Positions 9,028 to 25,401 of a stretch of DNA of 45,412 nucleotides are shown one piece after another (position 1 is the first letter of the stretch; every line of letters starts with the position of its first letter). Source of the stretch: Candidatus Bathyarchaeota archaeon. GTDB taxonomy: Archaea; Thermoproteota; Bathyarchaeia; Bathyarchaeales; Bathycorpusculaceae. The stretch lies in assembly GCA_963739305.1 (NCBI GenBank), contig CAVTZU010000035.1, positions 1-45,412 on the forward strand. The letters run 5' to 3'. The notes under the pieces were generated by a model. It saw only the letters and a list, made by a program, of their open reading frames with translations. It made no database searches and had not been told where the DNA came from. A program made the translations under genes and the position numbers.

Positions 9028-10021
9028 TCAGTTGGAACGACAAGGATCTAGAACGTTTGATTCGTCAATTGTTGGCGGTGGAGGCGCCTGTGGAATTTCT
9101 TCATGCCTGTCTTCTTTGGCGAGGTGTCCTAGGACTATCGCGGCCACAGCTAGCAGGATGAACACTCCTGCGAGAGGCAGGTACGGTTGGTAGTCGTCCC
9201 ACAAACTCGTCCCTATAGAAGGTGGAACCGTTCCTTCAGTCAACATCGCATAGGGCATACTAGTTGGGAGCTGAACGTTTTGGCTAAATTTGTTATCATA
9301 AAGGTTCGTGAGAGCGTAAATGTCGAGAGTTGAAGGATAAACTACTATAGCTCTTCGAGGAGGTGTAGTACATTAATTCCGGTCCGTTCAGCGTGTTGGG
9401 TGAGTCTGCATGTCCCAGGCCAAGTGCGTGTCCGAATTCATGCATCGCCACATTTTTCACAAATAGCTTAGCGGCGGTTCCGGAGAAGGTGGTTACGTTG
9501 ATAGTAATGGGCGCCATCGGCGTATGTGTGATCGAGTTCCAACTGTAGGTGGTCAGCCCAACCGTGTTTGAAGTTGGAGGCATGTTGTCTGGCGTGAAAG
9601 TGAAGGCAACGTCATAATGGTCCGTGGCGTTGACGTCGCTGACATAAAAAGCATAGTTTATCATGGGCAACGAAGCGTTGTAGGTCTGAGTGTAGTTCCA
9701 GATGCTTTTAACCCAGCTATCCAAGGCCTCCCGCACTGCAACGGCATATTCAGGAACAGTCCACCTGTTCATGTCAACGTACACGTTCAGGGGGAAACTG
9801 GTCCATCGGAATTCCTCAAGCGCAATGACCGGAGACGAATCAGGCGCTGAAAAAGCAACCGTTCGGAAGAGAAGACCGAAATTTAAGGGCGCTACTATCA
9901 GGAAAACAAGTAACAGATGCTTCACCTTGAAGCTAATCCCGCGCTTTTTTCTTATGTTCAAAAGATTCATCATTGACCATGTTTCGAGTCGAGTTCTTAA
10001 ACGTGCTTTTCTAGCAATCAA
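9028..10021 (-). pseudogene. Membrane-anchored matrixin-like (M10, metzincin) zinc metalloprotease with one frameshift near 9350
   Basis: HEFGHALGLGH and Met-turn ELMY; shifted frame continues AIVVYPSTLDIYALTNLY...SMPYAML into ORF 9028..9258 with a C-terminal TM; start probably near 9970. Confidence 0.8.
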
Positions 10022-10098
10022 GATTCACGTTTAAGATTGGTCACCAAGTAACGATAGGTCAATGGGCTCCGATGTTAGAGAAGGATAGAACTTTCATC

Positions 10099-10114
10099 CA
10101 AAAATCTTTTAAAT
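10099..10114 (+). promoter_or_regulatory. BRE/TATA candidate in the divergent intergenic region
   Basis: caaaaatcttttaaat about 50 nt before 10162. Confidence 0.5.
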
Positions 10115-10161
10115 TTGAAACCTGTATCCTACATTGCTGACTTAGTTTAGCAGGGAGAAAG

Positions 10162-11670
10162 GTGAAAATGAAACGCAGTAGATTATACGCTCTATCTCTG
10201 ATCATCATAGGATTGATGTTGACAAGCATAATCAACGTCTTCATTGTCCATGCGCCCGTAGTTCAATGGCAAGGTTACATAAAACCTGCATTTCCCGACT
10301 ATACTCCAAGCGGAATGCCTGATTTTGACGAGAAACAGAATGGTTGGGGACCAGCTCCAGGAACGTACACTTGGTGTGGCCCTGTAGCAGCTGCAAACTC
10401 GCTCTGGTGGCTAGACTCCGAGTACGAGTCAGCTTATAATCCACATCCGACCCCACCTCCAACAATCAGCGACCACTTCAACCTTGTAAAACCTACAACG
10501 CCAGTTGGGATGATCATGATCCAGAAACGTTGATCCATTCGTTCACAACCTTAGCCTTCTTGATGGACACTGATGGTCAAAGAACAGGAGATGGTCATAT
10601 TGGAACGCGTTGGCCAGACCTTGAGAGTGGGATCAAACAATACATTAGTGCAACAGGGTCTAGCAGGATTCTTCGAGGTTCACAACAGCTCTTTTCCAGA
10701 CTTATGCCTGGATCGCCAATGAAACACAGGTATGTCAAGACGTTGAGATCTTCCTGGAGTTCTACCAATTCACCGGTGGTGGTTGGACCAACCTGACGAT
10801 CACGAACCCAAGCATAGAATTTGGACATTTCGTAACCTGTGCAGGCGTGAACGTCACCGACGAGGTGAAGTTTTGATAAGTGACCCGCTACAGGACGCTT
10901 ACGAAGCTGGAAGCGTCCCCAAAGGGCGTTCACCGATTCCTGAACCGTATCCTCATCCATCAATAGCTCACAACGATGCTCAATTTGTCTCGCAGGACGT
11001 TTACTCGGTAGCACCATGGATCATACCGCCACCTTCGCCTTATGGTTTACAACCAGTTTGGGAACTGGTTGGATATCTGCAAACCATGGGATATGATCCA
11101 TCCTACCATGCGTTCATCAGAGCTGCTATAGCCACATCAGCGACTGGCGTTCATGACGTCGCCGTGACCAACGTCAAAACTTCAAAAGATGGGTGCAAGC
11201 CGATGCCTACAGTGGCTGACAATTCGAAGGTCAAAACAAACGTCACCGTCCTCAATAAGGGCAACTTTACAGAAACCTTCAATGTTACGATGTACGCGAA
11301 CACAACTGCGGTAGATACCCAAACGGTAACAAGCTTGGCATCAGGTGCCCAAATCACACTCTTCTACACATGGAACACAACGGGCTGGGCTCACGGCAAC
11401 TACACTATAACCGCGTATGCAGCTCCAGTTCCAGGCGAGACAAATACAACTGATAACACCTACACGGATGGCGTCATAAAAGTCGTCATAGCAGGAGACA
11501 TCAACGGAGATGGAGGCGTCGACATATACGATGCCATAATGCTTGCTGGGGCATACAACTCTGTCCCAGGCGCGCCAAACTGGAACCCGAATTCAGACTT
11601 GAACTCAGACGGAATAGTCGACATATACGACGCCATAATATTAGCGGGTCACTACAGCCAGCACGAGTAG
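10162..11670 (+). pseudogene. Secreted papain-like (C39-like) cysteine peptidase + CARDB/Ig + dockerin-like domain, broken by at least 4 frame changes (10490-10865)
   Basis: Signal peptide; WCGPVAAAN (Cys 10375), GHFVTCAG (His 10826, other frame), ISDP (Asp 10882); HDVAVTNV..WNT..DN CARDB; duplicated GDINGDGGVDIYD / DLNSDGIVDIYD. Confidence 0.75.
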
Positions 11671-11683
11671 AACAATCCTCCCC

Positions 11684-11693
11684 TTTCTTTTTT
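11684..11693 (+). terminator. Oligo-T terminator candidate
   Basis: T-rich tract 13 nt after stop 11670. Confidence 0.5.
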
Positions 11694-11737
11694 CGCGATC
11701 AGGCAAACGATTGCGTTCTGTCACGCGAGACGCTAGG

Positions 11738-11811
11738 TGCGGTCGCCGGGATTTGAACCCGGGTCGTCGGCGTGGGAGGCCGATGTCCTAGCCAGGCTAG
11801 ACTACGACCGC
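11738..11811 (-). tRNA. tRNA-Gly (CCC), intronless, CCA not fully encoded
   Basis: Reverse complement GCGGTCG...TCGGC-CT-CCC-AC-GCCGA...GGTTCAAATCC...CGACCGC-A folds as a cloverleaf. Confidence 0.95.
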
Positions 11812-11897
11812 CTGTCCACAGAAACTAGGCAGAGACAATTTGACTTGTTAGACTTTTATCCCTTGCTCTGGGACCTTGAGAGCAAGGAAAGAGGCTA

Positions 11898-13448
11898 CTA
11901 ATGCTCTTCGATAATTTGCGCTTTGGTTTTCTTAGGCGTTTGACCACGCGTTGACAGGTATGAAGCAGTTACTAGGAAGGCTGCGGTCAACGCTGCGAAG
12001 ACATAGGCAAGGTTGCGTAGGTTCTGTGTCGTTTCAGCCTGGCTGCTCAGGCTATTTTGGAGAGATGAATTAAGGTTAAGGTAACTGTTTTGAAGCTGAG
12101 TGAAGTTTTGTAGCAAGAGAGTATAGCTGTTCAGAAGGGCCTGCAAAGTTGTATTCTGACTGATTAGAAGATTTTGGTAAGTAGCGTTCAAGCTGTCAAA
12201 GTCGGCCTGAAGCTTATTGTACTTGTCGAGCAAGGAATTGTATGCCTGAAAATCATTTGAGGAAAAAACTGTTACGGTCTGATTCTCATTGGAGTAAGTG
12301 AAGTAGAGATAAGCATTTGTCTGGTTCGATGCACTTAGCAAGTTCCCTTGTGCTTGTCCTTCATTGGTTATTATGGTAAACGGATAGTTGATTATTGAAG
12401 TTGGAATTGCCATTCTGCAAAAACCTGTTTGGCCAGTTTGCCCATTAGCGTTGAACGTGATCATTTTGTTGCCCGTTTCTCTTCCAGTTTCGTAACTGAA
12501 GCTGGAAATCGTGGAGTTGCTTACGATATCAACAAAGTACGTTGCATTCGTGGTCACCGTGAACTCTGAGAAGATCCCCATCAGAGGATATTCGTCAAAG
12601 TTGTTCGTATCTACAAGATAAGTGTCGTCTCCGATTCCATCATTGTTGGCATCAGTTCCTGCGTAGCTTATCCAAAAGTTTCCTTCACCGTTCTTGCTCC
12701 AGATGTTCTGCGCGTTCGGTGATTGGTCCGTGCTGACAATGTCTTCAAAATTGTTGTGGAAGAAAATGTTCTGGCGTGAGCCAGCGGCCAGAGACATTCC
12801 TTGTTCATTGTTTGAAAGCGTATTTGCAACGAACACATTGCTGCTGGACGTGTAGACCAATATTCCAATCGAGTTGCCATAGACAGCATTCTTCGAAAAG
12901 AAGTTCCGCCCTGAATAGTAACAAGTGATTCCTACGACAGTGTTGTTGGTGATTATGTTGTTTGAGAAAATACTGTTGGTGCAAAATCGCATACCGATTC
13001 CAGTTGCTGTGCCCGTGATTATTACTTGGATTACGGAGACCCCCGCGGCGTTTTCGACACTTATTCCAAGGTCATCCGGTCCATGAACGCTCTTCGTGAC
13101 TGTCAAGTCTTGAACGGTCACGTTGTCGCTGGTTATCGAAATGACGATTTGAGCGTTAGATCCGTCAATAATAGTTGTGTTTCTGTCTTCGCCGACAAGC
13201 GCAATGCTCTTGTTTAAGATGAGATTCTCTTGATATGTGCCTGGTGCCAAGACTACGGTGTCTCCTGATGTTGCGTTATTCACTGCCGCCTGAATTGATG
13301 TGAAGTTAAGCGGAACGCGTATGATCTGGGGGTCTCGGGTTGCAGATGCCTCAAGCTTGACGGGAAGCATGCCCCCGTTGGAGGCGAAAACATAGAACAA
13401 AGACAAGCTGACCAAAAGGATCCAAGCATGTTTTTTCATTTCGATCAC
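11898..13448 (-). CDS. Cell-surface parallel beta-helix (NosD/pectin-lyase-like) protein with coiled-coil stalk and C-terminal TM anchor
   Basis: Signal peptide, SIQAAVN.A..GDTV...PGTY.E, Asn-rich repeats, GNFW..Y.G.D.N.DGIGD, heptad region, TM plus basic tail. Confidence 0.85.
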   Translation of the reverse strand: MIEMKKHAWILLVSLSLFYVFASNGGMLPVKLEASATRDPQIIRVPLNFTSIQAAVNNATSGDTVVLAPGTYQENLILNKSIALVGEDRNTTIIDGSNAQIVISITSDNVTVQDLTVTKSVHGPDDLGISVENAAGVSVIQVIITGTATGIGMRFCTNSIFSNNIITNNTVVGITCYYSGRNFFSKNAVYGNSIGILVYTSSSNVFVANTLSNNEQGMSLAAGSRQNIFFHNNFEDIVSTDQSPNAQNIWSKNGEGNFWISYAGTDANNDGIGDDTYLVDTNNFDEYPLMGIFSEFTVTTNATYFVDIVSNSTISSFSYETGRETGNKMITFNANGQTGQTGFCRMAIPTSIINYPFTIITNEGQAQGNLLSASNQTNAYLYFTYSNENQTVTVFSSNDFQAYNSLLDKYNKLQADFDSLNATYQNLLISQNTTLQALLNSYTLLLQNFTQLQNSYLNLNSSLQNSLSSQAETTQNLRNLAYVFAALTAAFLVTASYLSTRGQTPKKTKAQIIEEH

Positions 13449-14249: not shown

Positions 14250-14654
14250 TTGAAGGGCTTAAGTATGGAGAAGTACATTGTTGATAGAACCTTATCCTAC
14301 ATCCCCCTGCAAAAAAGATATCGGCTCTGTGGTTTTGCTTTGGGAAAGAAATATCGCAGTCATTTTGAGATCATAGCCCTTATGGTTGAAGCCGTCAGAG
14401 ATGCGGGACAACCCAAATTCTCCATAATGCAGCATGCAAGCATCAACTGTGGGCAGGCTGATAAGTTTCTGAGTTCTCTCATCTCGATGGGATTCATCGA
14501 GCAGTACATCATGAGTGGAAGACCAATGTATAGGGCGAGCGAGAGGGGCTTGGCCTTTTTGAGACAGTACTACGTTCTTCTCGGCATGTTCTTGGTTTCG
14601 GAGGATGAAGCAAGACAACCTGCCATTATTCATCAGAACAGTCTAAGACAATAA
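14250..14654 (+). CDS. Archaeal winged-helix transcription regulator (start uncertain, perhaps TTG 14340)
   Basis: YRSHFEII..M.E......KFSIMQHASIN......FLSSL...GFIE......Y..SERG..FL..Y. Confidence 0.8.
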   Translation: MKGLSMEKYIVDRTLSYIPLQKRYRLCGFALGKKYRSHFEIIALMVEAVRDAGQPKFSIMQHASINCGQADKFLSSLISMGFIEQYIMSGRPMYRASERGLAFLRQYYVLLGMFLVSEDEARQPAIIHQNSLRQ

Positions 14655-14816: not shown

Positions 14817-15902
14817 ATGGAGCAATTGACACGAAAGCTCACTTACGCTGAATCAGGCGTCGACAGGGAGCTGAGAGCTGAATCCAAGAGGGCGCTGGGC
14901 ATGCTGAAGGGCACCTACAGATACAGCAAATACGGGAAACTAGTTGAACTTCCCTACGGCAGAGTTTTCCCATTCCTTGATCGCTACTTGGATCTGCAGA
15001 TCGAAGGAGTCGGCACGAAAGTTCTGGTTGCTCAAATCATGGAAAAGTACGACACAATAGGAATTGATGCGATTGCGATGGTAGTCAACGACGTAATACG
15101 CTCGGGTGCAACTCCACTTGCCGTGGCGGACAACATCCATGCACAGGTGTCTGATCCCTTCCTAGTAAAGGAGTGGATGAAAGGGGTCATCAGAGGTGCC
15201 GAAGAATCTGAATGCATGATTCCTGCAGGCGAAATAGGAGACGTCGCCGACTTGATCAGTGGTTCACGTTCCCGCAAAGGATTCGACCTAGTGTGCGCCG
15301 CGATAGGCGAAGTCACTGAAGAAAAACTAGTTTCTGGCAGAAAAATCAAGTCAGGAGATTCGATAATAGGCATGAGAAGTTCCGGGATTCACAGTAACGG
15401 TGTCTCGTTAGCGAGGAAAGTGCTCTTTAAAGAATGGGGAGGGAAATATTCGCCTAACGCTTCTCCTGAGAGTCTCGGCAGAGAAGTCGGTTCCGAAGTC
15501 CTTGAACCAACAAGGATATACGTCAAACCCTTCCTTCGAGTGGCAGAAAAACTTGAGATCAAGGGCGCAGTCCACATCACCGGCGATGCGTACCTCAAAT
15601 TCAAAAGTCTGACAAAATTCTCGCGAAGAATCGGCTTCGAATTCAACAACTTCAAACCTCAGCCGATCTTCAGACTGATCCAGCGAACTGCAGCAAAAAT
15701 CAGTACTGCCATAACCGATGAAGAGATGTTCAAGACCTTCAACATGGGGTGGGGGTTCGCAATAATCGTTGACAAAAGCGTAAGGGACGACGCCTTAGAT
15801 ATTTTGGAGCAGGCTGGAATGGAGTCCGAACAAATTGGCAATGTGAACAGTTCGGAAGGAGTCAAAATTGTCAGTGAAGGCAAGAGCATCATCCTCGACT
15901 AG
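14817..15902 (+). CDS. purM: Phosphoribosylformylglycinamidine cyclo-ligase (AIR synthetase)
   Basis: TYAESGVD, EGVGTK, SSGIHSNG, EPTRIY, HITG, EM.KTFNMG.G. Confidence 0.93.
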   Translation: MEQLTRKLTYAESGVDRELRAESKRALGMLKGTYRYSKYGKLVELPYGRVFPFLDRYLDLQIEGVGTKVLVAQIMEKYDTIGIDAIAMVVNDVIRSGATPLAVADNIHAQVSDPFLVKEWMKGVIRGAEESECMIPAGEIGDVADLISGSRSRKGFDLVCAAIGEVTEEKLVSGRKIKSGDSIIGMRSSGIHSNGVSLARKVLFKEWGGKYSPNASPESLGREVGSEVLEPTRIYVKPFLRVAEKLEIKGAVHITGDAYLKFKSLTKFSRRIGFEFNNFKPQPIFRLIQRTAAKISTAITDEEMFKTFNMGWGFAIIVDKSVRDDALDILEQAGMESEQIGNVNSSEGVKIVSEGKSIILD

Positions 15903-15920
15903 TTCTTTGCATCAAGAGCG

Positions 15921-15937
15921 GCAAAAGCGTTTAAATT
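15921..15937 (+). promoter_or_regulatory. BRE/TATA promoter for a probably leaderless purSLQ mRNA
   Basis: gcaaaagcgtttaaat ending about 24 nt before ATG 15960. Confidence 0.6.
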
Positions 15938-15959
15938 TGCTCATCCTCAAGTCTATTCT

Positions 15960-16211
15960 ATGAAATATCGCCTAACAATTGAAGTTACTCTTAAGCCGGG
16001 ACACAGCGACCCCGAGGGCGAAACCGCCGCTGAACTGTTGAAACAGCTCGGCTACAGAATTGAAACTGTCAACGTTGGCAAAGTCTACTCAGTTGTTCTT
16101 CAAGCCACAACGAAGACTGAGGCAAAAACAAAGGCAGAAGAAATGTGTAGGAGACTGCTGGCCAATCCAACAAAGGACAACTACTCTATCGCCATCGAGG
16201 AAACAAAATGA
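15960..16211 (+). CDS. purS: FGAM synthase subunit PurS
   Basis: LKPGHSDPEGE, GK.Y, MC.RLLANP. Confidence 0.93.
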   Translation: MKYRLTIEVTLKPGHSDPEGETAAELLKQLGYRIETVNVGKVYSVVLQATTKTEAKTKAEEMCRRLLANPTKDNYSIAIEETK

Positions 16212-18589
16212 CGTCGCGCGTCTTCGCACTCAGAAAAGTTCCATTCACGCTTTTCGAAGTCAAACTTAACGCGGCCTCAGACAAACAGCTCGTCGAAATC
16301 AGCAACGAGCTCGGAATCGGCCTAAATCTTAAAGAAATGAAATTCATTAGAGGATACTTCTCAAAGAAAGGTCGAAATCCAACCGACGTCGAACTGCAGA
16401 CCATAGGTCAAACATGGTCTGAGCACTGCTGCCACAAGACTTTCAAAGGCAAAATCAAATTCGACGGAAAGGAGATTGACAGCCTTTTCAGAACCTACAT
16501 TTCGAGCACGCTCGGAAGAGTGAAGCCAAAGTGGTGTTTCTCTGTTTTTGAAGACAACGCCGGAATCGTCGAGTTCGACAAGAATTATGGTATAGCAATC
16601 AAGGTTGAAACGCACAATCATCCATCCGCAGTTGAGCCGTTCGGGGGAGCAGCAACTGGAACAGGCGGCGTAATCCGCGACATACTTGGAGTTTGGGCAG
16701 ACCCGATCGCATGCACGGATGTACTGGGATTTGGACCGCAAGACTTTGACTACAAGAAACTACCGCCAGGCGTGAAGCATCCTAAGTACGTTTACATGGG
16801 AGTCGTGGCTGGCATCGGGAGTTACGGGAACAACATGGGAATTCCAACGGTCAACGGCGCCGTCTACTTTGACGAGAGCTACACAGGCAATGTCATAGTC
16901 TATTGCGGCTGCATCGGGCTACTCCCTCTCAGCAAATTCAGGAAAAACGCTCAACCAAATGATGCGTTAGTCATGGCTGGTGGGAAGACCGGTCGCGATG
17001 GCATACATGGCGTAACCTTCGCATCTGCTGAATTGACGGAGAAGTCGGAGGAAATCTCTCGTCCCTCTGTTCAGATTGCCAATCCAATTGAGGAAGAGAA
17101 ACTCAAGAGGGCGTTAATCAAGATACGAGACCTAGGCCTGGGGTCTTCGACAACAGATTTAGGCGGCGGAGGGCTCTCCTCCGCGGTTGGCGAGACCGCA
17201 AGCAAGTTCAACTGTGGCGCCCTGGTGGATCTCGACAAGGTTCCGTTGAAATATCCAGGGCTTGTTCCTTGGGAGATCTACGTTTCAGAATCGCAGGAAA
17301 GGATGCTGCTGACCGTGCCTCCTGGAAATCTAGCGAGGGTATTCTCGATTTTCGAAGAAGAAGATGTTCAAGCAACTGAGATAGGACAACTGACATCTGA
17401 TGGCGTTCTTAGACTCAGTTTTCGGGGTCAAGAAGTCGCCTCGATGGAAATAGCGTTTCTTTTTGGAGCGCCGAGAACGACCAAGACCGCAACTTACAAG
17501 CCTCCTGACCTGAAGGAACCGAATGTTCCACCACCAGAAAACCTGTCAGAGGAGCTTCAAAAAATCCTTTCTTCGCCCGACGTTGCAAGCAAAGAGAGCG
17601 TAGTGCGCACCTACGACCACGAGGTTAAAGGGAACACAGTGCTCAAACCATTACAGGGAGAGTACCGAGGTCCAAATGACGCGGCAGTTCTGAAACCGTT
17701 GAACGATTCTTGGAACGGAATCGCAGTTTCATGTGGTATGAGCCCGAACTACGGGAGAATAGACCCTTACTGGATGGCTGCCTCCTGCATAGACGAAGCA
17801 ATAAGAAACAACGTCGCAGTTGGAGGCAGACGGATCGCGCTTCTCGACAACTTCACTTGGGGAAATCCTGAACGACCCGAAAGACTCGGAAGCCTAGTGA
17901 AGGCATGTCAGGCTTGCTACGACGTGGCGATTGCTTATGGAACGCCGTTCATATCAGGAAAAGATAGCCTCTACAACGAGTCCCCCTTGGGACCTGTGAC
18001 TCCGACGCTTCTGGTAACAGCGTTAGGCATAGTTCCCGACGTTCGCTCTACGGTTTCAATGGACGTAAAAGCTCCAGATGAATCGATCTACGTCGTAGGA
18101 GGAACTCACCAAGAACTGGGCGGCTCAGAATACTACAGATTGAAGGGTTTTCTCGGAAAATCCGTTCCTCAAGTGCGAAAGACTGAAGGCAAGAAAACGT
18201 TCGAAGCCGTCACTAACGCAATTGATTCTAAGTTGATCAGAGCCTGTCACGACTTGTCGGGAGGTGGCTTAGCCGTCGCCGCGTCCGAAATGGCATTCAC
18301 TGGAGGATTTGGAATTGACCTCGACCTCGGAAGAGTGCCTAGGGATACATTGAACCGTGACGATTGTGTACTCTTCTCAGAATCAAACACGCGTTTTCTC
18401 ATAGAGGTTTCTGAAGAGAACAAAACGCGATTCGAGTCTCTGATGCGGCGCACATGCTTCGCAGAAGTGGGCAAAACCAGGGCAACTTCACGGTTTCGCG
18501 TCAAAGGGTTAAACAAAAGAGTTGTGGTCGACGTTTCGCTTGACGATCTGATGTCAAGCTGGAAGCGAACGCTGAGCCACGAGGCTTGA
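16208..18589 (+). CDS. purL: FGAM synthase subunit PurL
   Basis: WSEHC.HK, KVETHNHPS, GGAATG.GG.IRD, SESQERM, GKDSLYN; ATGA overlap with purS. Confidence 0.97.
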   Translation: MTSRVFALRKVPFTLFEVKLNAASDKQLVEISNELGIGLNLKEMKFIRGYFSKKGRNPTDVELQTIGQTWSEHCCHKTFKGKIKFDGKEIDSLFRTYISSTLGRVKPKWCFSVFEDNAGIVEFDKNYGIAIKVETHNHPSAVEPFGGAATGTGGVIRDILGVWADPIACTDVLGFGPQDFDYKKLPPGVKHPKYVYMGVVAGIGSYGNNMGIPTVNGAVYFDESYTGNVIVYCGCIGLLPLSKFRKNAQPNDALVMAGGKTGRDGIHGVTFASAELTEKSEEISRPSVQIANPIEEEKLKRALIKIRDLGLGSSTTDLGGGGLSSAVGETASKFNCGALVDLDKVPLKYPGLVPWEIYVSESQERMLLTVPPGNLARVFSIFEEEDVQATEIGQLTSDGVLRLSFRGQEVASMEIAFLFGAPRTTKTATYKPPDLKEPNVPPPENLSEELQKILSSPDVASKESVVRTYDHEVKGNTVLKPLQGEYRGPNDAAVLKPLNDSWNGIAVSCGMSPNYGRIDPYWMAASCIDEAIRNNVAVGGRRIALLDNFTWGNPERPERLGSLVKACQACYDVAIAYGTPFISGKDSLYNESPLGPVTPTLLVTALGIVPDVRSTVSMDVKAPDESIYVVGGTHQELGGSEYYRLKGFLGKSVPQVRKTEGKKTFEAVTNAIDSKLIRACHDLSGGGLAVAASEMAFTGGFGIDLDLGRVPRDTLNRDDCVLFSESNTRFLIEVSEENKTRFESLMRRTCFAEVGKTRATSRFRVKGLNKRVVVDVSLDDLMSSWKRTLSHEA

Positions 18590-18592
18590 ACA

Positions 18593-19411
18593 ATGAAGCG
18601 TGAAGAAATCCAAGTTTGCGTTCTGCGCGTTGGCGGGACGAACTGCGATGCTGAGACAAAACGTTCCTTCGAGGAACTTGGCGTCCACGCTGAGATTGTT
18701 CATGCGAACGTTATGGCCACGCGACAAAGCATGCTAGAGTACAACGCTTTGGTCTTTCCAGGAGGATTCTCATATGGAGACTACGTCCGCGCAGGGGCAA
18801 TATGGGCAAAATTGATAGTTGCGAAACTAGGAAAAGAACTGCAGACTTTCGCAGACGAAGGACGTCCAATTCTGGGCATTTGCAACGGGTTCCAAGTACT
18901 AGTTGAAGCGGGGCTGTTACCGGCTTTCAACGGTGTCAGCTCTTATCCCGAGGCAGCGCTAGCCACCAACAGTCCGCCAGGCTACAACTGCAGGTGGATC
19001 AATCTCAAGCACGAAAACGGCGGGAGATGCGTTTTCACCCAGACGATTCGAAAAGGAAAAGTCCTTCGGGTGCCAGTCGCACACGGAGAAGGCAGGTTCA
19101 TCTTCGAGAAAGAAAAGGAAAGACGATATTTAGAGAAGCTTTGTGAGAATGATCAGTTAGTCTTTCGGTACTGCAAGAAAGATGGTCAGTACGCGGACGG
19201 TGCTTTTCCAGCAAATCCAAACGGATCATTCTATGACATAGCCGGTATATGCAACCCCGAAGGAACGGTGTTCGGGCTGATGCCTCATCCTGAGAGAGCC
19301 TTCTACTGGTGGCAACAACCTGACTGGACCAGGCAAGGAAAAGTGCCTGAATTTGGAGATGGAAAAATGATTTTCGAAAGTCTAGTCAGATATCTCGAAA
19401 AGAAGAATTAA
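18593..19411 (+). CDS. purQ: FGAM synthase glutaminase subunit PurQ
   Basis: GTNCD.ET, PGGFSYGD, GICNGFQ, AHGEG, NPNGS, MPHPER. Confidence 0.96.
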   Translation: MKREEIQVCVLRVGGTNCDAETKRSFEELGVHAEIVHANVMATRQSMLEYNALVFPGGFSYGDYVRAGAIWAKLIVAKLGKELQTFADEGRPILGICNGFQVLVEAGLLPAFNGVSSYPEAALATNSPPGYNCRWINLKHENGGRCVFTQTIRKGKVLRVPVAHGEGRFIFEKEKERRYLEKLCENDQLVFRYCKKDGQYADGAFPANPNGSFYDIAGICNPEGTVFGLMPHPERAFYWWQQPDWTRQGKVPEFGDGKMIFESLVRYLEKKN

Positions 19412-19425
19412 GCAGCCTAAGTTTT

Positions 19426-20346
19426 TTATGCTGGCTTCAGAGTTCTGAGATCTTTCAGCGTCGGCAACGATGTCCTTGCTCCCATCGCCATGATACATCG
19501 AGATGCAACGAAATTGCCGATTCTTGCACATTCGCAAATGCCTTTTCCAGAAAGCAATCCATAAATGAAGCCGGCGTCGAAAGCATCCCCTGCCCCAGTT
19601 GTGTCCAGGACTTCAACTTGGAAAGGCTCTACTAGATAGCTTTCTTTTCCATCGGTGACGTAACAACCTTTGTTTCCGAGCTTGACCGCCACCACTTTCA
19701 CACCGTGATCAATGAGTGATTTTGCACCAGTTCTAAACTTTCTTTCGCCGGTCAAGAGTCTAAGTTCAACTGCATTTGGCATCATGACAAAGGTGCTGTC
19801 AATTATGGATTTTAGTTTCGATAATCCCGCTCTGGCGTACAATGCTCCGGGATTCAAACTGATTTTCACTGTCTCAGCAAATCTGTCAACGAGGTTCCTC
19901 TGAGTCTCGAATGACTTCTCTCCAACGAAGGATGACAAATGCAGAAAACTTGTGTTCAGGACGTAATTTGAGTCAACATCATCGCTGTTTATTTCGTCAT
20001 TTACTCCTGGGTCGACGTAGAGGGCTCGTTGTCCGTCGTCGTCGACAAAACCCATTACCTTCCCGCTTCTTCCGTTTCTCGCGACTTTCGTCCCATTCGT
20101 ATCGACTTTTTCCTTTCTAAAGCCTTCGAGCAACGTTCTGCCTTCCTTGTCGTCTCCAACTTTGCCTATGAAGCCGACGTGGGCTCCTAATCTAGCGAGG
20201 CCCACGATTGTGTTTGCCGCCGAGCCACCGCATGTCTCCGAATAATCTTTTATGAAGCTTTCTTCTTCAGCACCGGCTATTCTGTTAACTTTGAACAGTT
20301 TGTCAACGTTGAGGGCGCCGAATCCTATTACATCAAACCTTTTCAT
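19426..20346 (-). CDS. PfkB/ribokinase-family (nucleoside-type) kinase
   Basis: [34 protein letters not shown]. Confidence 0.92.
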
Positions 20347-21260
20347 TGAAACAGCTCTCTCAGAGGAATCTTGTGTTGACCTAGCTTCCCCCCGTAGTTG
20401 CCCGCAGAAATCCTTACAACATCTCTAACGCTTAAGGCAGCTTCTATGCTGGCTTTCATAGCCTGCTTGACAGCTGACATTGAAACGCCATTGATGACAA
20501 TTTCCGGTATATAACGGACTCCTTCAGGAACCATCGAGGCTTTGCCGAGTTTTTTCTTGAGAGAAGGGCAGTATTCGTGGTTTGTCGTTGGTCCAATCCA
20601 CGGAAACCTCGTTTCAGTCTTTGAGCCAGCGGAGCAGATGTCAAACGAAGTTATGACGCCGTTGACCTTGTGTATCGCTGCCAAAGCTTTGGCTCCTGCG
20701 TCCTTCAATGCTTGTTTGGTCTTGCACATCACCCAGAAGTTTGCGCCCATAACACCGTTGGCATAGCCTAAGTAGTGTTCGACTATGAAGTCTGGAACCA
20801 TTGTTGGAACGATGATCACTTCGCGGCCGAACCGTTTCTCCACCCATTCGTAGCCGTCACCGCAATGTCCTACGCGTTCCATCATGTCTATTTTTCCTTC
20901 AGGTTTGGACAAGGCGTCAAAAACGGCGGTGAACGGTTTCACCAGGATGTCTTGGCGTATTCGATACGAGAGTTCAATTTCAAATCTCTTTAGGCTGTCT
21001 GAAAAAGGCTTTTTTGAATCCGCCGAACCCCAGAACTGAAGGATCGCACCTGGACGTTTGTCTGGTGTTTGTTTTTCATTTATCCATTTTTCAATTCCGC
21101 CTTCGACTCTGCCGATTACTATCGAAGGAGTGGCAGTCGCATCTTGTGCGGCTTTCCTGACCGTTTCTTCATCGTCTGCTGTGACAGCAATTCGGCAGTA
21201 GAATCCGTCAAAGGCTTCAGCATAGGTATCTTCAATGATGTTTTTGTTAACCAAACTCAT
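20343..21260 (-). CDS. Formylmethanofuran:H4MPT formyltransferase-like protein (divergent Ftr paralogue)
   Basis: [46 protein letters not shown]; central motifs differ from canonical methanogen Ftr. Confidence 0.88.
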
Positions 21261-22339
21261 CCCAACTCTCCGGCCACAATACCCCTCACTTTCTTCCTAA
21301 ACTTGCTGCTTTCCTCAGCGAGCTCTTGCATATTTTCTGTGGTGATTATTTTAGCTTTGGGCAAATCCTTTACGTGAGTCTCGAGGAACTTGTTGATCAA
21401 TGACGGATCTGCTGAGCTCTCGCATATCGTTTGAGGGCTCCATTTCGCTACCAGCTCCCTGGTTTTGTCTTTTCCACATCTAATGAAAACGTCGGCGACA
21501 ATGGCGGTTGCAAGAGCGTCATAAGATATTAGAGCAATTTCCGAGTTGCTGATTGCATACCGGTTTCCGTTGTAGGAGACGGTTAATCCGTCATTTTCTT
21601 TCACAAGCTTGAAGGCTTCTTCATCTGTTATGCTGTCGCCAACGTACATTACGTCGCCGAGAGCTAGGCTGGTTTTTTTGGCAATTTCGGCTACGGCATC
21701 GGCCTTTTCGAAACCGCCCACCGGGTTGACTTCTGAATATATTGCACCTATGCACATTTCTGTTATTTGTTCCCAGAAAATGGCGTCGAGCTCTTCAATT
21801 GTTGCTTGGACACTTTCTGGGAGTTCTTTCAAGCTCTTTGCGTCTGGAGGGACTTCAAAAATAGGCATTTCCGCGATCAATTGGGCAGATTTTTTAACTT
21901 GTGCTTTTTCCTTTGCGTCCATACTGTATTGGTCCAAGTTGAGTCTAGTGCAGTATGTATTGTTGAAAGGAAACTCCAGTTTCTTGCAGAGAGCTTTGAT
22001 GTAGTGTTCGTAGCTCGTGCTTACGATGTAAGTTGGCGCAATGCTGAGGATGTGTTGCATTGACTCTTTGGCGTTCGTTATCAGAATCAGGTTCTTGGCG
22101 CAGTACTCTCTTATTTTTCTGTCCGTTACATCATAGGCTTTGAGAAACGGCAGGACAAGTTTCAATGTGTCGCCTGCTTTGTAACCTGCTCTCTTCAAAA
22201 TGTCCGCGAGTGCATCGTCATATCTGCTTGTTACTGCGAAGATCTTGTCCCCGTTCGGAACAAAATGTGACATTATTTCGAGTGCATTGTCGTTCTTGGA
22301 AATTGGGCCTTCACAGTCTGAGATGAAAGCTCTCGTCAC
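21257..22339 (-). CDS. HAD-superfamily hydrolase (COG4030/EhaR-like)
   Basis: Motif I variant DCEGP, VSTSY, GG.EK, motif [10 protein letters not shown]; GTGA overlap with purD and ATGA overlap with the ftr-like gene. Confidence 0.8.
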
Positions 22340-23745
22340 GACGTGCGCCTCAGTTTTCTGAGATGCCCCTTGCTTTTCTTTATGTTGGTTTCTGATGCTA
22401 CGTCGGTCCTGTTCCAGAGGGCTCCGCCTTTGATTGCTTCTAGGCCTTCAAGCGAAATCTGTCTTGCAGCTTCAATCGTGTCGCCGATGCCGATAGCGCA
22501 GATGGCTCGGGACTTTAGCGCGTAGACCTTGTTGTTGCGTTGCTCCATCGCCCCGGGATAAATTCGTATGTCGTTGCCAAATCTCTTCCTCAGCTCGTAT
22601 GCTTTTGACAGGTCAACAGGTCTCCCTATCTCGTTTTTGTCCACTGAAGCGGGAAACGTTTCATCATAGCCGCCGTATGAGGGTGGAACCTTGTAGGTGA
22701 CGACGGTTGCGGCTTTCGTCAGCTCGATCTTGTCTAGGGTGCCTTCGATCATCTTGAAGCAGACGTCGACAAAATCGTCCTTCAAGATTGGCAATATGTT
22801 CATTATTTCTGGGTCTCCGGGGCGACTGTTGTTCTCCAGTATTTTCAATCCTCTACCCGTGTGCATAAAGGCAACATAGAGGGGAGTTCCTCGCAATGCC
22901 GTGTCTTCTTTTCCTTTCCATTTCCGGAAGATGCTTTCAATGACTCTGATTTCCTTAGCTCGATCGCTCTCAGTCAGAAATGGCAGTACGTCACCGACCC
23001 CTTTGTACGAACCCATACCGCCTGTGTTGGGTCCTTTGTCGTTGTCGAATGCACGCTTGTAGTCTCTTGTGTCAGGCAACGGTACAAAGTGCTTTCCGTC
23101 GCAGAAAGCTTGAAAACTCGATTCCTCACCACCGATTTTTTCTTCCACTATCACGGGGCCATATTGATAATTGGACAGGAAGTGCTCGAAGAGCTGTTTT
23201 CGACTTTTGAAGTGGTCTCCCCAGACTCCCACGCCTTTCCCAGCCGTTGGCTTATCCGGCTTCACGACGGCTTTGTTGTCCAGTTCATCTAACCAATCGT
23301 AGACTGCCTTCTTCACTTTGCTAATGTTCTTGTGGTTTTTGGGGTTGAAAACTCTAAAGCGGGGGTTTACTTCTGGTGCAATCTCATCGAAAAGTAGTCG
23401 CTGCTGAACCTTGCTCTCTTCTATCGCGTATTGTTTGGTTGGACAGACCATCGGTATGGATGTTTCTTTTTCAATTAGGTCCCGAATTCCCTCGATGATC
23501 GGTTTTTCTGGACCGACAATTCCGAAATCAATTCGGCTCTTGTTTTCCTCAGCGAACTTGCATATCTCTTCAATGTTTAGGTCAGGTACTACGACGTGTT
23601 TCGCGGCTTTTTGAACGTTGAATGGGTTTTGCTGTTTGTCCGCAACGTAGAGTTCGACTCTGTACTTGGAACTTCGGGCAAAGGCATCTACCATAGCCGC
23701 TTCTCTTGAACCGTACGAAACGACAAGTATCCCTACCTTCTCCAC
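22336..23745 (-). CDS. purD: Phosphoribosylamine-glycine ligase
   Basis: GSRE, VGPE.P..EG, GKGV, EE.I.GEE.S, DYKRAFDND.GPNTGGMG, NSRPGDPE. Confidence 0.92.
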   Translation of the reverse strand: MEKVGILVVSYGSREAAMVDAFARSSKYRVELYVADKQQNPFNVQKAAKHVVVPDLNIEEICKFAEENKSRIDFGIVGPEKPIIEGIRDLIEKETSIPMVCPTKQYAIEESKVQQRLLFDEIAPEVNPRFRVFNPKNHKNISKVKKAVYDWLDELDNKAVVKPDKPTAGKGVGVWGDHFKSRKQLFEHFLSNYQYGPVIVEEKIGGEESSFQAFCDGKHFVPLPDTRDYKRAFDNDKGPNTGGMGSYKGVGDVLPFLTESDRAKEIRVIESIFRKWKGKEDTALRGTPLYVAFMHTGRGLKILENNSRPGDPEIMNILPILKDDFVDVCFKMIEGTLDKIELTKAATVVTYKVPPSYGGYDETFPASVDKNEIGRPVDLSKAYELRKRFGNDIRIYPGAMEQRNNKVYALKSRAICAIGIGDTIEAARQISLEGLEAIKGGALWNRTDVASETNIKKSKGHLRKLRRTS

Positions 23746-23797
23746 GATCGATCAACCTCGTTTCAAGATTTATCGTGAAAATCTCAGGTCCAATCGT

Positions 23798-25306
23798 TCA
23801 AGAGGCTTCTTGGATCGCCTCTTCCATCTCATACAGCCTTTCTTTCTCTTCAAACCCGTTCTCGAATCGCTTTTTCATCTCATCCGCTATCTTTTGCGCT
23901 AGAGGCGTTGGATACCTGCCGGTTATGCAACCTGTGCATAGTTCGTTTTGCTTGAAACCTATGGCTTTGACGAGGCCCTTCAGTGATTGATAGCAGACAG
24001 AATCCGCTCCTATGGCTTTCGCGATTTGTTCCGTGGTATGCGTGGAGCCTATGAGTTGTCCGTACGTTGACATGTCTATGCCGTAGAAGCACGGTCCGAT
24101 TATGCGGGGAAACGTCACGAAAACGCACACTTTCTTGGCACCCATCCTGCGCAGTTTGTCAACTATGACTTTTGTCGTGTCGCCTCTGACTATGCTGTCT
24201 TCGGTTACTATGATGCGTTTTCCGTTGATTTTTGGTCCCAAGATGTTGACCTTTCTGTCTATGGTTGGGTTTCGATCTTTGTTAAGCAAGATGAAGGCTC
24301 TTTCAGTCACGTATCGGTGTCTGCGAGATGCTCTTTCCCATCGTAGTCCCGACTCATCATGAACGCCTAGTGCTGAGTCGTCACCGGTCTCTGGAACGGA
24401 CAATATTACGTCAGCGTCCTTGACAACGTCTGGGTTTTCCTTCACCAGGTTTCTTCCAAACTCTTCACGCACTTCGTAAACATATTTGGTGTCAAACCGC
24501 GAGTCGGGTCTCGCGAAATACGCAAATTCAAATGCGCAGAAGGCTTTCCTTTCATTGCTGACGAGTTTGTGCCTTTCAAATCCGTCTTTCGTGACCGTTA
24601 CAAGTTCTCCTGGTTCAAGCTCAAAATCTCTCGTGAAGCCGTTTATGTCCAGGCTGGCAGTTTCTGAGGAGAAGGCGTACGTTTTGTTATCGGAAGCGTG
24701 TCCCGCACACAACGGTCTTATACCATGTGGGTCCTTGAAGGCGAAGAACTCGCCTTTCTGGTTGATGCAAGCTACAGAGAAGGCTCCGTCGATTTCTTTC
24801 ATGGATGTTTTTACGGCTGAGGGTATGGATTTGCCCTTCAGAAACTCGATCAGAAGTTTGTGACAGATCAGGTCAGAGTCGCATTCATATGAAAATCGAG
24901 GGAACTGGCGGCATATTTCTTTCTTGAGTTGAAACGTGTTTACAACGTTGCCGTTGAATGAGACTGCAATTTTGAGTCCTTTCTTTGACGCCGTCATTGG
25001 CTGGGTTCCTCTGATTAAGGATGATTCATCGCATTTTCCCGAGGTAGTGTACCTCACGTTTCCAATACCAATGCTGCCAGGCAGGCGTCCGAACCATGCA
25101 GTAATCGCGCTAGTTTTTAACTTTGGAACTAGGTCCAGATTTCGGTGAACGTGGAATCGTCCATCGAGATAAGTGAGAAAGCCATGCGACTGATGTCCTC
25201 TGTGGTTTTGGGCTCTCATGCCCCAGTATATGTACGGAAAGACGGGTCGATTATCATAATTTATGGCGGCAAATACTCCGCATTCGATCCCCAGTTCGTC
25301 TTCCAT
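23798..25306 (-). CDS. purF: Amidophosphoribosyltransferase (propeptide and 4Fe-4S type)
   Basis: Short leader then ECGVF, HRG, VRY.T.G, NGN, FE..YFARPDS, DSIVRG.T, PCFYGID, LCTGC.TG.YP; TATA position favours ATG 25306. Confidence 0.94.
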   Translation of the reverse strand: MEDELGIECGVFAAINYDNRPVFPYIYWGMRAQNHRGHQSHGFLTYLDGRFHVHRNLDLVPKLKTSAITAWFGRLPGSIGIGNVRYTTSGKCDESSLIRGTQPMTASKKGLKIAVSFNGNVVNTFQLKKEICRQFPRFSYECDSDLICHKLLIEFLKGKSIPSAVKTSMKEIDGAFSVACINQKGEFFAFKDPHGIRPLCAGHASDNKTYAFSSETASLDINGFTRDFELEPGELVTVTKDGFERHKLVSNERKAFCAFEFAYFARPDSRFDTKYVYEVREEFGRNLVKENPDVVKDADVILSVPETGDDSALGVHDESGLRWERASRRHRYVTERAFILLNKDRNPTIDRKVNILGPKINGKRIIVTEDSIVRGDTTKVIVDKLRRMGAKKVCVFVTFPRIIGPCFYGIDMSTYGQLIGSTHTTEQIAKAIGADSVCYQSLKGLVKAIGFKQNELCTGCITGRYPTPLAQKIADEMKKRFENGFEEKERLYEMEEAIQEAS

Positions 25307-25328
25307 GACTGGGCAATAACAGAAGGGG

Positions 25329-25345
25329 TATTTATCAGTTTTTAG
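25329..25345 (-). promoter_or_regulatory. BRE/TATA promoter of the purF-purD-HAD-ftr-pfkB operon
   Basis: Reverse complement ctaaaaactgataaata about 23 nt upstream of ATG 25306. Confidence 0.55.
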
Positions 25346-25401
25346 CACATTTTTAACTAAAAACCATGGTGACTTTTACAAAAACAATGCTAAACCCTGG
25401 A

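Follow-up and report, generated by a model that had tools for sequence, protein, structure and literature searches.

A purD-linked ehaR-ftr2-pfkB gene string as a candidate for the missing formylation step of archaeal purine synthesis

Introduction

The window analyzed here, a 45,412-nucleotide stretch from a Candidatus Bathyarchaeota archaeon (assembly GCA_963739305.1, contig CAVTZU010000035.1), carries a purine biosynthesis cluster in which purD is followed by three overlapping genes, ehaR, ftr2 and pfkB, encoding an EhaR-family HAD-like protein, a paralogue of formylmethanofuran:tetrahydromethanopterin formyltransferase (Ftr) and a PfkB-family kinase. We propose the purD-ehaR-ftr2-pfkB string as the best candidate yet for a step of purine synthesis that has lacked an assigned enzyme in several archaeal lineages since 2011, the conversion of glycinamide ribonucleotide (GAR) to formylglycinamide ribonucleotide (FGAR), referred to below as step 3. 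On the basis of sequence comparisons, we consider it probable, though well short of certain, that Ftr2 formylates GAR or its riboside from 5-formyl-tetrahydromethanopterin (5-formyl-H4MPT), with EhaR and PfkB as conserved accessories, and the simplest account would make Ftr2 a third GAR formyltransferase, non-homologous to PurN and PurT. The assignment of Ftr2 and the trio to step 3 draws on gene order, on the missing PurN and PurT, on how the Ftr2 clade separates and complements those enzymes across genomes, and on the PurN-like and PurT-like enzymes that take its place or are fused to EhaR; which substrate and donor are used, and what EhaR and PfkB do, is our inference.

The gap itself is documented. 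In its available sections, Brown 2011 (PMC3261824) reports that purN and purT were not found in two Archaeoglobi, four Methanobacteriales species (written there as ‘Methanomicrobiales’, though the named species are Methanobacteriales) and Methanopyrus kandleri, and describes Methanothermobacter thermautotrophicus as a purine prototroph. Chadwick 2022 (PMC9012536), again in the sections available, describes a divergent ‘Ftr2’ clade in anaerobic methanotrophic archaea (ANME) of the groups ANME-1 and ANME-2a/b, in Archaeoglobales, in M. kandleri and in Methanothermobacter marburgensis, and in a separate section reports ANME-1, Archaeoglobales and Methanobacteriales as without PurN or PurT, referring to ‘an as yet unidentified enzyme’; the clade and the gap are left unconnected in those sections. 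Within the literature searched, which excluded subscription journals, no publication was found that ties Ftr2/EhaS, EhaR, AF1437 or COG4030 to GAR formylation, and ‘glycinamide riboside’ occurred 0 times. Neither the solved structures nor the available text of Chadwick 2022 (PMC9012536) included a characterized Ftr2 member.

A purine gene cluster without a recognizable step 3 enzyme

The cluster spans 14817-25348 and consists of a minus-strand string, purF-purD-ehaR-ftr2-pfkB, which converges on a plus-strand string, purM-purS-purL-purQ. On the minus strand, the trio comprises ehaR (21257-22339; 360 amino acids, 91 bits to PDB 1y8a, AF1437), ftr2 (20343-21260; 305 amino acids, PF01913, PF02741 and NF002554) and pfkB (19426-20346; 306 amino acids, PF00294 181 bits, the EhaT counterpart), and it is preceded by purF (23798-25348; amidophosphoribosyltransferase, step 1; TIGR01134 309.8 bits with a cut-off of 350, PF13537) and purD (22336-23745; GAR synthetase, step 2; GARS_N/A/C domains, TIGR00877 249.4 bits with a cut-off of 288). 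The plus strand carries purM (14817-15902; aminoimidazole ribonucleotide synthetase, step 5; TIGR00878 261.9 bits, above the cut-off of 236) and the three parts of formylglycinamidine ribonucleotide synthetase (step 4), namely purS (15960-16211), purL (16208-18589; TIGR01736 677.7 bits) and purQ (18593-19411). The 4-nt stop/start overlaps that link purD to ehaR (GTGA, 22336-22339), ehaR to ftr2 (ATGA, 21257-21260) and ftr2 to pfkB (ATGA, 20343-20346) can be read directly in the sequence. The trio adjoins purF, purD and purQ, and there is no hydrogenase gene beside it.

An earlier note, made from the window sequence alone, had described the cluster as holding purF, purD, purSLQ and purM without any PurN- or PurT-like gene, had placed the same three overlaps and had assigned the middle gene of the trio to the Ftr family; all of this was confirmed. 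Open reading frames (ORFs) and hidden Markov model (HMM) matches agree on the gene content, the HMM searches returned no match to the Formyl_trans_N fold or the PurT ATP-grasp family among the window proteins, and Ftr2 matches PF01913 with 150.3 bits and PF02741 with 186.9 bits.

The absence extends from the window to the whole genome (2.32 Mb in 36 contigs, 97.1% complete, 7.8% contamination), as the note had thought worth checking: Formyl_trans_N (PF00551) gave 0 matches, and the top genome-wide match to the PurT model TIGR01142 reached 39.9 bits, within a 1101-residue ORF that we read as carB-like. Step 9 is covered by two tandem PurP genes (G000:C13:53622-55261; 254 and 234 bits to PF06973), and PurH1 was not found in the genome search. 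Since Mch (403 bits) and FwdA (811 bits) are present and FolD and FTHFS were not found in the same search, the one-carbon (C1) metabolism is of the methanopterin type. Among the purine steps checked (purC, purE, purB and the cyclohydrolase were not searched), step 3 is the sole unfilled one. The tandem PurP pair resembles the unexplained cluster Ib/cluster II pairs described in the available text of Brown 2011 (PMC3261824).

A formyltransferase clade distinct from the solved Ftr enzymes

Three Ftr paralogues are encoded in the genome, Ftr1, Ftr2 (the window copy) and Ftr3, so that the case that would have spoken against the earlier note, a single Ftr grouping with the canonical enzymes, is not what we found. 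The window Ftr2 is 40% identical to Ftr1 of its own genome; it passes NF002554 (339.8 bits, cut-off 297) and stays below the equivalog TIGR03119 (fhcD; 226.4 bits, cut-off 292.6). Used as a query, it gave bimodal scores, with orthologues at 254-538 bits (45-77% identity) and canonical-type sequences at no more than 220 bits (33-45%). In a tree of 64 sequences (IQ-TREE quick mode), the 39 Ftr2-type rows are split from all others by a branch with an SH-aLRT of 99 and a length of 0.46, and the window protein clusters with Methanobacteriales EhaS at a support of 100. Ftr1 and Ftr3 of the same genome were placed on the Ftr1 side, as was Archaeoglobus Ftr1, which scores 641 bits to PDB 1m5h while an Archaeoglobaceae Ftr2 scores just 215. 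By these comparisons the Ftr2 clade is distinct from all solved Ftr enzymes, and no orthology with a characterized or solved enzyme was found. The third paralogue (G000:C28:58169-59044) sits on a branch of length 1.43 inside the Ftr1 side, with its C-terminal motif altered to AANYGGTLG.

Ftr2 shares the two-lobe PF01913 + PF02741 fold with Ftr (EC 2.3.1.101; PDB 1ftr, 2fhj, 1m5h, 1m5s) and FhcD (6s6y), to which it scores 160-179 bits, and the catalytic glutamate and the C-terminal AGNYGGKLG are common to both. This glutamate, Glu245 in M. kandleri Ftr, is retained in Ftr2 as E253, where the motif PEIVING aligns with YEIVING of 1m5h, with at least 90% conservation of the position in the Ftr1 as well as the Ftr2 clade; in FhcD the catalytic residue is Glu252 (PMC6926001, in its available part). 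It is among 38 positions common to the two clades, and a further 13 positions are specific to Ftr2, including P252 beside the catalytic glutamate, C133, W176 and C179. Ftr2 then differs from the solved Ftr enzymes in its separate clade with conserved positions of its own, its place beside purD, ehaR and pfkB, its retention where FwdA or Ftr1 is missing, and its anti-correlation with PurN and PurT.

Phyletic complementarity with PurN and PurT

In a sample of 151 Thermoproteota genomes, 20 of them from the class of the window (Bathyarchaeia), EhaR was found in 17 of these 20 and in none of the 131 others. Ftr2 is present in 15 of the 20 Bathyarchaeia, all 15 with EhaR and none with a PurN- or PurT-like gene, and ehaR adjoins ftr2 in 13 of them; in one genome (G085) purD-ehaR and ftr2-pfkB are separated by 16 kb, and in another (G093) ehaR and ftr2 lie on separate contigs. 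The purD-ehaR-ftr2 order was found in 10 further Bathyarchaeia loci, and the convergent purM-purS-purL-purQ arrangement recurs in many. The class members without Ftr2 are informative as well. In two genomes (G002 and G117) PurM is kept, EhaR and Ftr2 are both missing, and a PurT-like gene is present at full length (245 and 239 bits); the purF-purD-ehaR-ftr2-pfkB string, without a PurT-like gene, was seen in a genome of their sister genus (G029). In the two genomes of another family (G037 and G069, family f7), EhaR is kept, Ftr2 is missing and a 278-residue PurN-like formyltransferase follows purF-purD, with a PurH1-like/FolD/PfkB cluster 3 kb from EhaR. The last (G021) has no EhaR, Ftr2 or PurT-like gene; since neither a PurM above cut-off nor a match of PurL size turned up, it is probably not purine-making.

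Several loci met in these searches deserve a separate mention. A Thermoproteota genome of another class carries 141 residues (G105:C129:5557-5979) that are 70% identical to Ftr2 and form part of a 471-residue ORF; these could reflect a fusion, a fragment or contamination, and the same genome has a PurT-like gene. Two contigs labelled Nitrososphaerota archaeon (L091 and L100) hold a typical Bathyarchaeia purF-purD-ehaR-ftr2-pfkB string at 64-70% identity, and the label probably reflects an older taxonomy. In three contigs (L131, L093 and L052) of Bathyarchaeota metagenome-assembled genomes (MAGs), purF, purD, ehaR and ftr2 are in several out-of-frame pieces, purD of L131 being in six, which looks like long-read indel errors rather than pseudogenes.

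The complementarity was also seen in 131 Halobacteriota genomes. Ftr2 was called at 250 bits or more, or from contig-end partial matches of at least 51% identity (G162, 51%; G269, 66-71%; G301, 73%); PurT at 212 bits or more over the full length, with one contig-end partial match also counted (G280, 233.7 bits, positions 1-171); and PurN at E ≤1e-25. One genome with fragmentary Ftr2-like pieces only (G182) was scored as negative. In cross-tabulations compiled by hand from the search listings, in which a transcription slip is possible, PurN or PurT was present in 6 and absent from 52 of the 58 Ftr2-positive genomes, and present in 67 and absent from 6 of the 73 Ftr2-negative ones. EhaR occurs in 66 of the 131 genomes and in 54 of the 58 with Ftr2, the two genes lying no more than 3 kb apart on one contig in at least 10 of these 54. 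Among the 12 genomes with EhaR and without Ftr2, eight have PurN, one has PurT (G250, with its PurT gene next to ehaR) and three have neither. Altogether, EhaR coexists with PurN or PurT in 15 of 66 EhaR-positive genomes, and 58 of the 65 EhaR-negative genomes carry PurN or PurT.

A further set comprised 50 EhaR-positive genomes outside Bathyarchaeia, 36 archaeal and 14 bacterial, in which canonical PurN was found in 6, PurT in 1 and neither in 43. All nine EhaR-positive Methanobacteriota (G152-G160) lack PurN and PurT, eight having Ftr2 and one a PurN-like enzyme, and an Altiarchaeota genome has canonical PurN directly upstream of ehaR-pfkB. The anti-correlation anticipated in the earlier note is seen in the Bathyarchaeia and Halobacteriota samples, and PurN or PurT is absent from most genomes with these genes rather than present in them. 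This distribution matches the PurN/PurT gap described in the available parts of Brown 2011 and Chadwick 2022 (PMC3261824; PMC9012536).

The expectation that linkage to pur genes would be conserved was borne out in part only: the purD link is kept across Bathyarchaeia, and ehaR lies beside or near purD in four Asgard-type loci, but the trio belongs to the eha operon in Methanobacteriales, and the genes are scattered in Archaeoglobi and ANME-1. Informative neighbours were sought in ANME-1, Archaeoglobaceae, Hydrothermarchaeum, Altiarchaeota and Methanopyri, and none were found; those met were HemD, ribosomal L18e, TPR, rhomboid, thioredoxin, RtcA, asparagine synthase-like, DtxR-like repressor and chaperonin genes.

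EhaR and PfkB accompany unrelated formyltransferases

EhaR meets HAD motifs I-IV in D8-x-E10 (DCEGP), S107-T108-S109 (STSY), K212 and G234-D-S-I-T-D239 (GDSITD), and it retains the Asp nucleophile but has Glu instead of Asp at position +2; HAD Pfam models match it below cut-off only. We collected 3330 relatives, which the JGI annotation calls ‘energy-converting hydrogenase A subunit R’, and 615 family representatives at E ≤1e-3. Some representatives (P0191, P0220, P0233, P0234, P0237, P0244, P0248, P0253, P0259, P0262 and P0261, the last from a Candidatus Methanoplasma MAG) have lost both the Asp nucleophile and GDSITD, and would probably constitute a non-catalytic EhaR-like subfamily.

The surroundings of EhaR were surveyed in a motif-selected scan of at least 120 loci, with one genome per species and 8-kb blocks annotated by tblastn. 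Among the 120 loci listed, at least 47 have an Ftr2 gene in the block, in Bathyarchaeia with purD and in Methanobacteriales as ehaR-ftr2-pfkB; purD, ehaR and ftr2 share one block in at least 27, 23 of which also have pfkB. At least 16 of the same 120 have a PurN-like gene in the block, mostly as pfkB-PurNlike-ehaR, and these three genes share one block in at least 14 (12 in that exact order and 2 in another). The PurN-like blocks come from Thermodesulfobacteriota, Deltaproteobacteria, Dehalococcoidia, Thermoleophilia, Actinomycetota, Bipolaricaulota, Armatimonadota, Aerophobetes, Syntrophorhabdales, Methanomassiliicoccaceae, Altiarchaeota and a Methanobacteriota MAG, and two of those listed are embedded in pur operons (L044, purL-purF-purM-pfkB-PurNlike-ehaR, and L124). 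A PurT-like gene was met in at least 1 listed block, as an ORF adjacent to ehaR in an Aenigmatarchaeota locus (L028). In 56 of the 120 no formyltransferase was recognized, many of these blocks ending at the EhaR gene. An Odinarchaeota locus among those listed reads purL-purF-purD-ehaR-pfkB-x-purB-purM. A locus labelled Bacteroidaceae bacterium (L053) carries a Methanobrevibacter-type ehaR-ftr2-pfkB string, 52% identical to the window Ftr2, and is most likely an archaeal contig that was mis-binned into, or contaminates, a bacterial assembly.

Fusions point in the same direction as gene order. In one 599-residue representative (P0183), a PurN-like domain is fused to EhaR, and its PurN-like part is 53% identical to the enzyme of an f7 bathyarchaeon (G069). 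In two others (P0198, 899 residues; P0211, 961 residues), EhaR forms the C-terminus and the N-terminus matches PurT/ATP-grasp models only, weakly and over a short stretch; we considered these as EhaR-PurD fusions and rejected that reading, the N-termini being without similarity to the window PurD. No fusion of EhaR to Prs or PurF was seen among the EhaR representatives.

The PurN-like enzyme that replaces Ftr2 beside EhaR and PfkB in the f7 Bathyarchaeia and in many bacteria retains the N-x-H and Asp of PurN, its best solved relatives are GAR transformylases, and it scores 76.6 bits to PurN vs 36-42 bits to PurU. Approximately 80 of its N-terminal residues do not align with PurN, and this region in PurN presumably holds the GAR phosphate loop. 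Canonical PurN, PurT and any Ftr were found in none of the 14 EhaR-positive bacteria, and PurM was present in four of the five examined for it.

EhaR and PfkB therefore pair equally with Ftr2, PurN-like and PurT-like enzymes and are not methanopterin-specific, an observation that is new here. It modifies the earlier note, which had treated the trio as one methanopterin-linked unit, since EhaR and PfkB also occur with PurN-like and PurT-like enzymes, including in bacteria without any Ftr. Because the three partner folds are unrelated and share only GAR and FGAR, the role of EhaR and PfkB would be on the acceptor side rather than with the methanopterin donor. In addition, canonical PurN and PurT mostly occur without EhaR and the EhaR-linked enzymes are all divergent, which suggests that the EhaR-linked formyltransferases may use a modified acceptor.

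The eha-operon counterpart of the trio

In Methanobacteriales, the eha operon closes with ehaR-ehaS-ehaT, three genes that are orthologous to the window trio and stand in the same order, beside hydrogenase genes there and beside purF and purD here. This parallel, named in the earlier note, proved accurate: a Methanobrevibacter locus (L029) reads hydrogenase subunits, two polyferredoxins, ehaR, ftr2 and pfkB in sequence, the relatives in the JGI annotation are named EhaR, and PMC3087415, in its available text, names EhaS and EhaT. Names are used inconsistently in the literature, as sections 9.4 and 10 of the same paper call the Ftr-like eha product EhaS once and EhaT once, and its Table 2 places MTH403 under Ftr (PMC3087415).

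Formyl donor and proposed mechanism

Nine Halobacteriota genomes have Ftr2 as their sole Ftr, and seven of the nine are without FwdA; the completeness of these Ftr2-only genomes is unreported, several being dominated by one large contig. Mch, which makes 5-formyl-H4MPT from methenyl-H4MPT, was present in all five tested of the seven, and in one (G211) Mch and Ftr2 are 1.6 kb apart. A classical Ftr would have no obvious use where both formylmethanofuran dehydrogenase and Ftr1 are missing, and as Mch can supply 5-formyl-H4MPT, a formyl-H4MPT donor and an acceptor other than methanofuran are favoured. The most likely formyl donor for Ftr2, as judged from this gene content, would be 5-formyl-H4MPT. 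The central idea of the earlier note, a step 3 module that uses formyl-H4MPT, thus finds partial support in the PurN/PurT gap, in the complementarity and in the FwdA-less genomes with Mch.

In the mechanism that we propose, Ftr2, with its catalytic glutamate retained, would move the formyl group onto the amine of glycinamide in place of methanofuran, and 5-formyl-H4MPT would be delivered by Mch or Ftr1. EhaR, with its HAD fold and intact motif, and PfkB, a ribofuranose-type kinase, look like obligatory partners whichever formyltransferase acts. As a phosphatase-like enzyme is fused to the transferase and accompanied by a ribofuranose-type kinase, we tentatively favour a bracket of dephosphorylation and rephosphorylation around the transfer, an idea that is possible but may well be wrong. 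EhaR would strip the 5'-phosphate off GAR to give glycinamide riboside, the formyltransferase would act on the riboside to give formylglycinamide riboside, and PfkB would re-add the phosphate using ATP to give FGAR. The Ftr reaction lies about 4 kJ/mol from equilibrium, and one ATP coupled to such a near-equilibrium transfer would make it irreversible. Extended to all partners, this would amount to a widespread three-enzyme route to FGAR in anaerobic archaea and bacteria, in which EhaR, an interchangeable Ftr2, PurN-like or PurT-like enzyme, and PfkB work via dephosphorylated intermediates, a generalization that we offer as speculative. Lie et al. reportedly found in 2012 that Eha replenishes C1 intermediates drawn off for biosynthesis, and such restocking would explain the location of the trio in the eha operon of Methanobacteriales.

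Ftr2 would share with PurN (EC 2.1.2.2) its proposed product FGAR and its position in pur clusters, but the two have no sequence or fold relation, and 10-formyl-tetrahydrofolate is the donor of PurN whereas a methanopterin-bound formyl group is proposed for Ftr2. PurT serves the same step in folate-free archaea and also has an unrelated fold; if the bracket is true, the Ftr2 route would likewise cost one ATP per formylation, but free formate and formyl phosphate are not implied for Ftr2.

Several points weigh against the assignment of Ftr2 and its partners to step 3. The evidence on the roles of Ftr2, EhaR and EhaT is all associative, and we know of no precedent for a kinase and a phosphatase flanking one formyl transfer, at the cost of an ATP. 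The 38 positions shared with Ftr1, together with the NF002554 score above cut-off, leave room for an ordinary Ftr activity of Ftr2. Six of the 58 Ftr2-positive Halobacteriota also carry PurN, and six other Halobacteriota have none of PurN, PurT and Ftr2; among the 50 EhaR-positive genomes outside Bathyarchaeia, PurN and full-length Ftr2 occur together in four (one ANME-2, two Promethearchaeota, one Altiarchaeota), and PurN with fragmentary Ftr2-like matches in two more (G182 and G186). As related genomes are non-independent, the 2x2 tables overstate significance and should be read as a pattern, not a P-value, and many of the genomes are MAGs of unreported completeness, so that absences are weak. 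The EhaR motifs D-x-E-G-P, STSY, Lys and GDSITD are conserved in every genomic context, but the locus scan required GDSITD, so for those loci the conservation is partly circular. The neighbours of Ftr2 and EhaR are uninformative in Archaeoglobi, ANME-1 and Hydrothermarchaeota. Finally, the eha trio is co-transcribed with the hydrogenase in Methanobacteriales and is read as subunits in the available text of PMC3087415.

Alternative explanations

The alternative that survives best, although we regard it as unlikely, is that Ftr2 alone does step 3 and that EhaR and PfkB are pentose-phosphate or nucleoside salvage enzymes accompanying the pur genes, for example a ribose or ribose-1-phosphate kinase and a sugar-phosphate phosphatase or nucleotidase, feeding phosphoribosyl pyrophosphate or balancing purine pools. 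The kinase lends itself to this reading: it scores 177.7 bits to ribokinase TIGR02152 (below the cut-off of 299.65) and 130-137 bits, also below cut-off, to the ribose-1-phosphate kinase models, these being its best NCBIfam matches, and its nearest PDB entries are ribokinases at about 100 bits. It is one of two PfkB-family matches in the genome by tblastn, so that the window copy may be a housekeeping pentose kinase, and module kinases from all contexts match this copy best; moreover, at least 14 of the 120 loci listed have EhaR and PfkB without a recognized formyltransferase in the same 8-kb block. Salvage enzymes would leave it unexplained, however, that the EhaR fusions are specific to formyltransferase domains, with none seen to Prs or PurF, that the trio also stays intact away from pur operons, as the closing genes of the eha operon, and that EhaR accompanies Ftr2 so regularly in Halobacteriota (54 of 58).

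Ftr2 might instead duplicate ordinary formylmethanofuran:H4MPT formyltransferase activity, serving anabolic C1 flux or belonging to Eha as an associated subunit, which we think improbable. The NF002554 match, the catalytic glutamate and the other shared positions would suit such an enzyme, as would the co-transcription of EhaS and EhaT with eha (PMC3087415, available text), but the seven Ftr2-only genomes without FwdA and Ftr1 would offer a classical Ftr no formylmethanofuran, and the anti-correlation with PurN/PurT, the PurN-like replacement after purD and the purD linkage would all go unexplained. With Ftr2 so occupied, step 3 would need another enzyme, and the tandem PurP paralogues of this genome come to mind, cluster II PurP-like proteins being without demonstrated function in the available text of Brown 2011 (PMC3261824). 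We rejected cluster II PurP as the missing enzyme, because Methanobacteriales have a single PurP and still lack PurN and PurT according to the same text (PMC3261824); Sulfolobales and Pyrococcus, which hold both PurP clusters together with PurT, show the same misfit between PurP and the gap.

That the trio is a PurU analogue, releasing formate from formyl-H4MPT (perhaps through a phosphorylated intermediate) for PurP and for an unrecognized formate-dependent GAR ligase, is very unlikely, even though PurP of this genome needs formate, the Ftr homologue FhcD is part of a formate-releasing complex in methylotrophs (PMC6926001, available part), PurT-like enzymes, which would consume formate, occur fused to EhaR or next to it, and the formate source for archaeal PurT and PurP is called unexplained in the available text of Brown 2011 (PMC3261824), since HAD and PfkB chemistry targets phosphate esters and not formamides, no PurT-like enzyme was found in the genome to spend formate at step 3, the PurN-like partner is closer to PurN than to PurU and keeps its N-x-H and Asp, and the complementarity is with PurN and PurT themselves.

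Implications

If Ftr2 does formylate GAR or its riboside, methanopterin C1 metabolism would be tied directly to purine synthesis, and EhaR, EhaS and EhaT would be not hydrogenase subunits but an anabolic module that shares an operon with Eha and draws Eha-fed C1 units into purines. The acknowledged GAR formyltransferase gap in Methanobacteriales, Archaeoglobi, Methanopyrus and ANME-1 (available parts of PMC3261824 and PMC9012536) would be filled by a concrete three-gene candidate within reach of cloning from cultured organisms, Methanothermobacter and Archaeoglobus among them, and three orphan eha genes and the structural-genomics orphan AF1437 (PDB 1y8a) would be accounted for. Many anaerobic bacteria with the parallel PurN-like/EhaR/PfkB module also appear to be without canonical PurN or PurT, which bears on how the metabolism of Bathyarchaeia, Asgard archaea, ANME and sulfate reducers is reconstructed.

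Other features of the window

The longest ORF of purF begins with GTG, and an internal ...IEC|GVF motif suggests a propeptide ahead of the N-terminal Cys. The next gene after purF is aspS. Directly upstream of purM, a small winged-helix protein (14250-14654, plus strand; PF14947 HTH_45, 39 bits) is a possible regulator of the pur cluster. Further upstream, 9296-13448 encodes a series of likely secreted or surface proteins, including an M10-like metallopeptidase, a CARDB + dockerin protein and a NosD/beta-helix protein.

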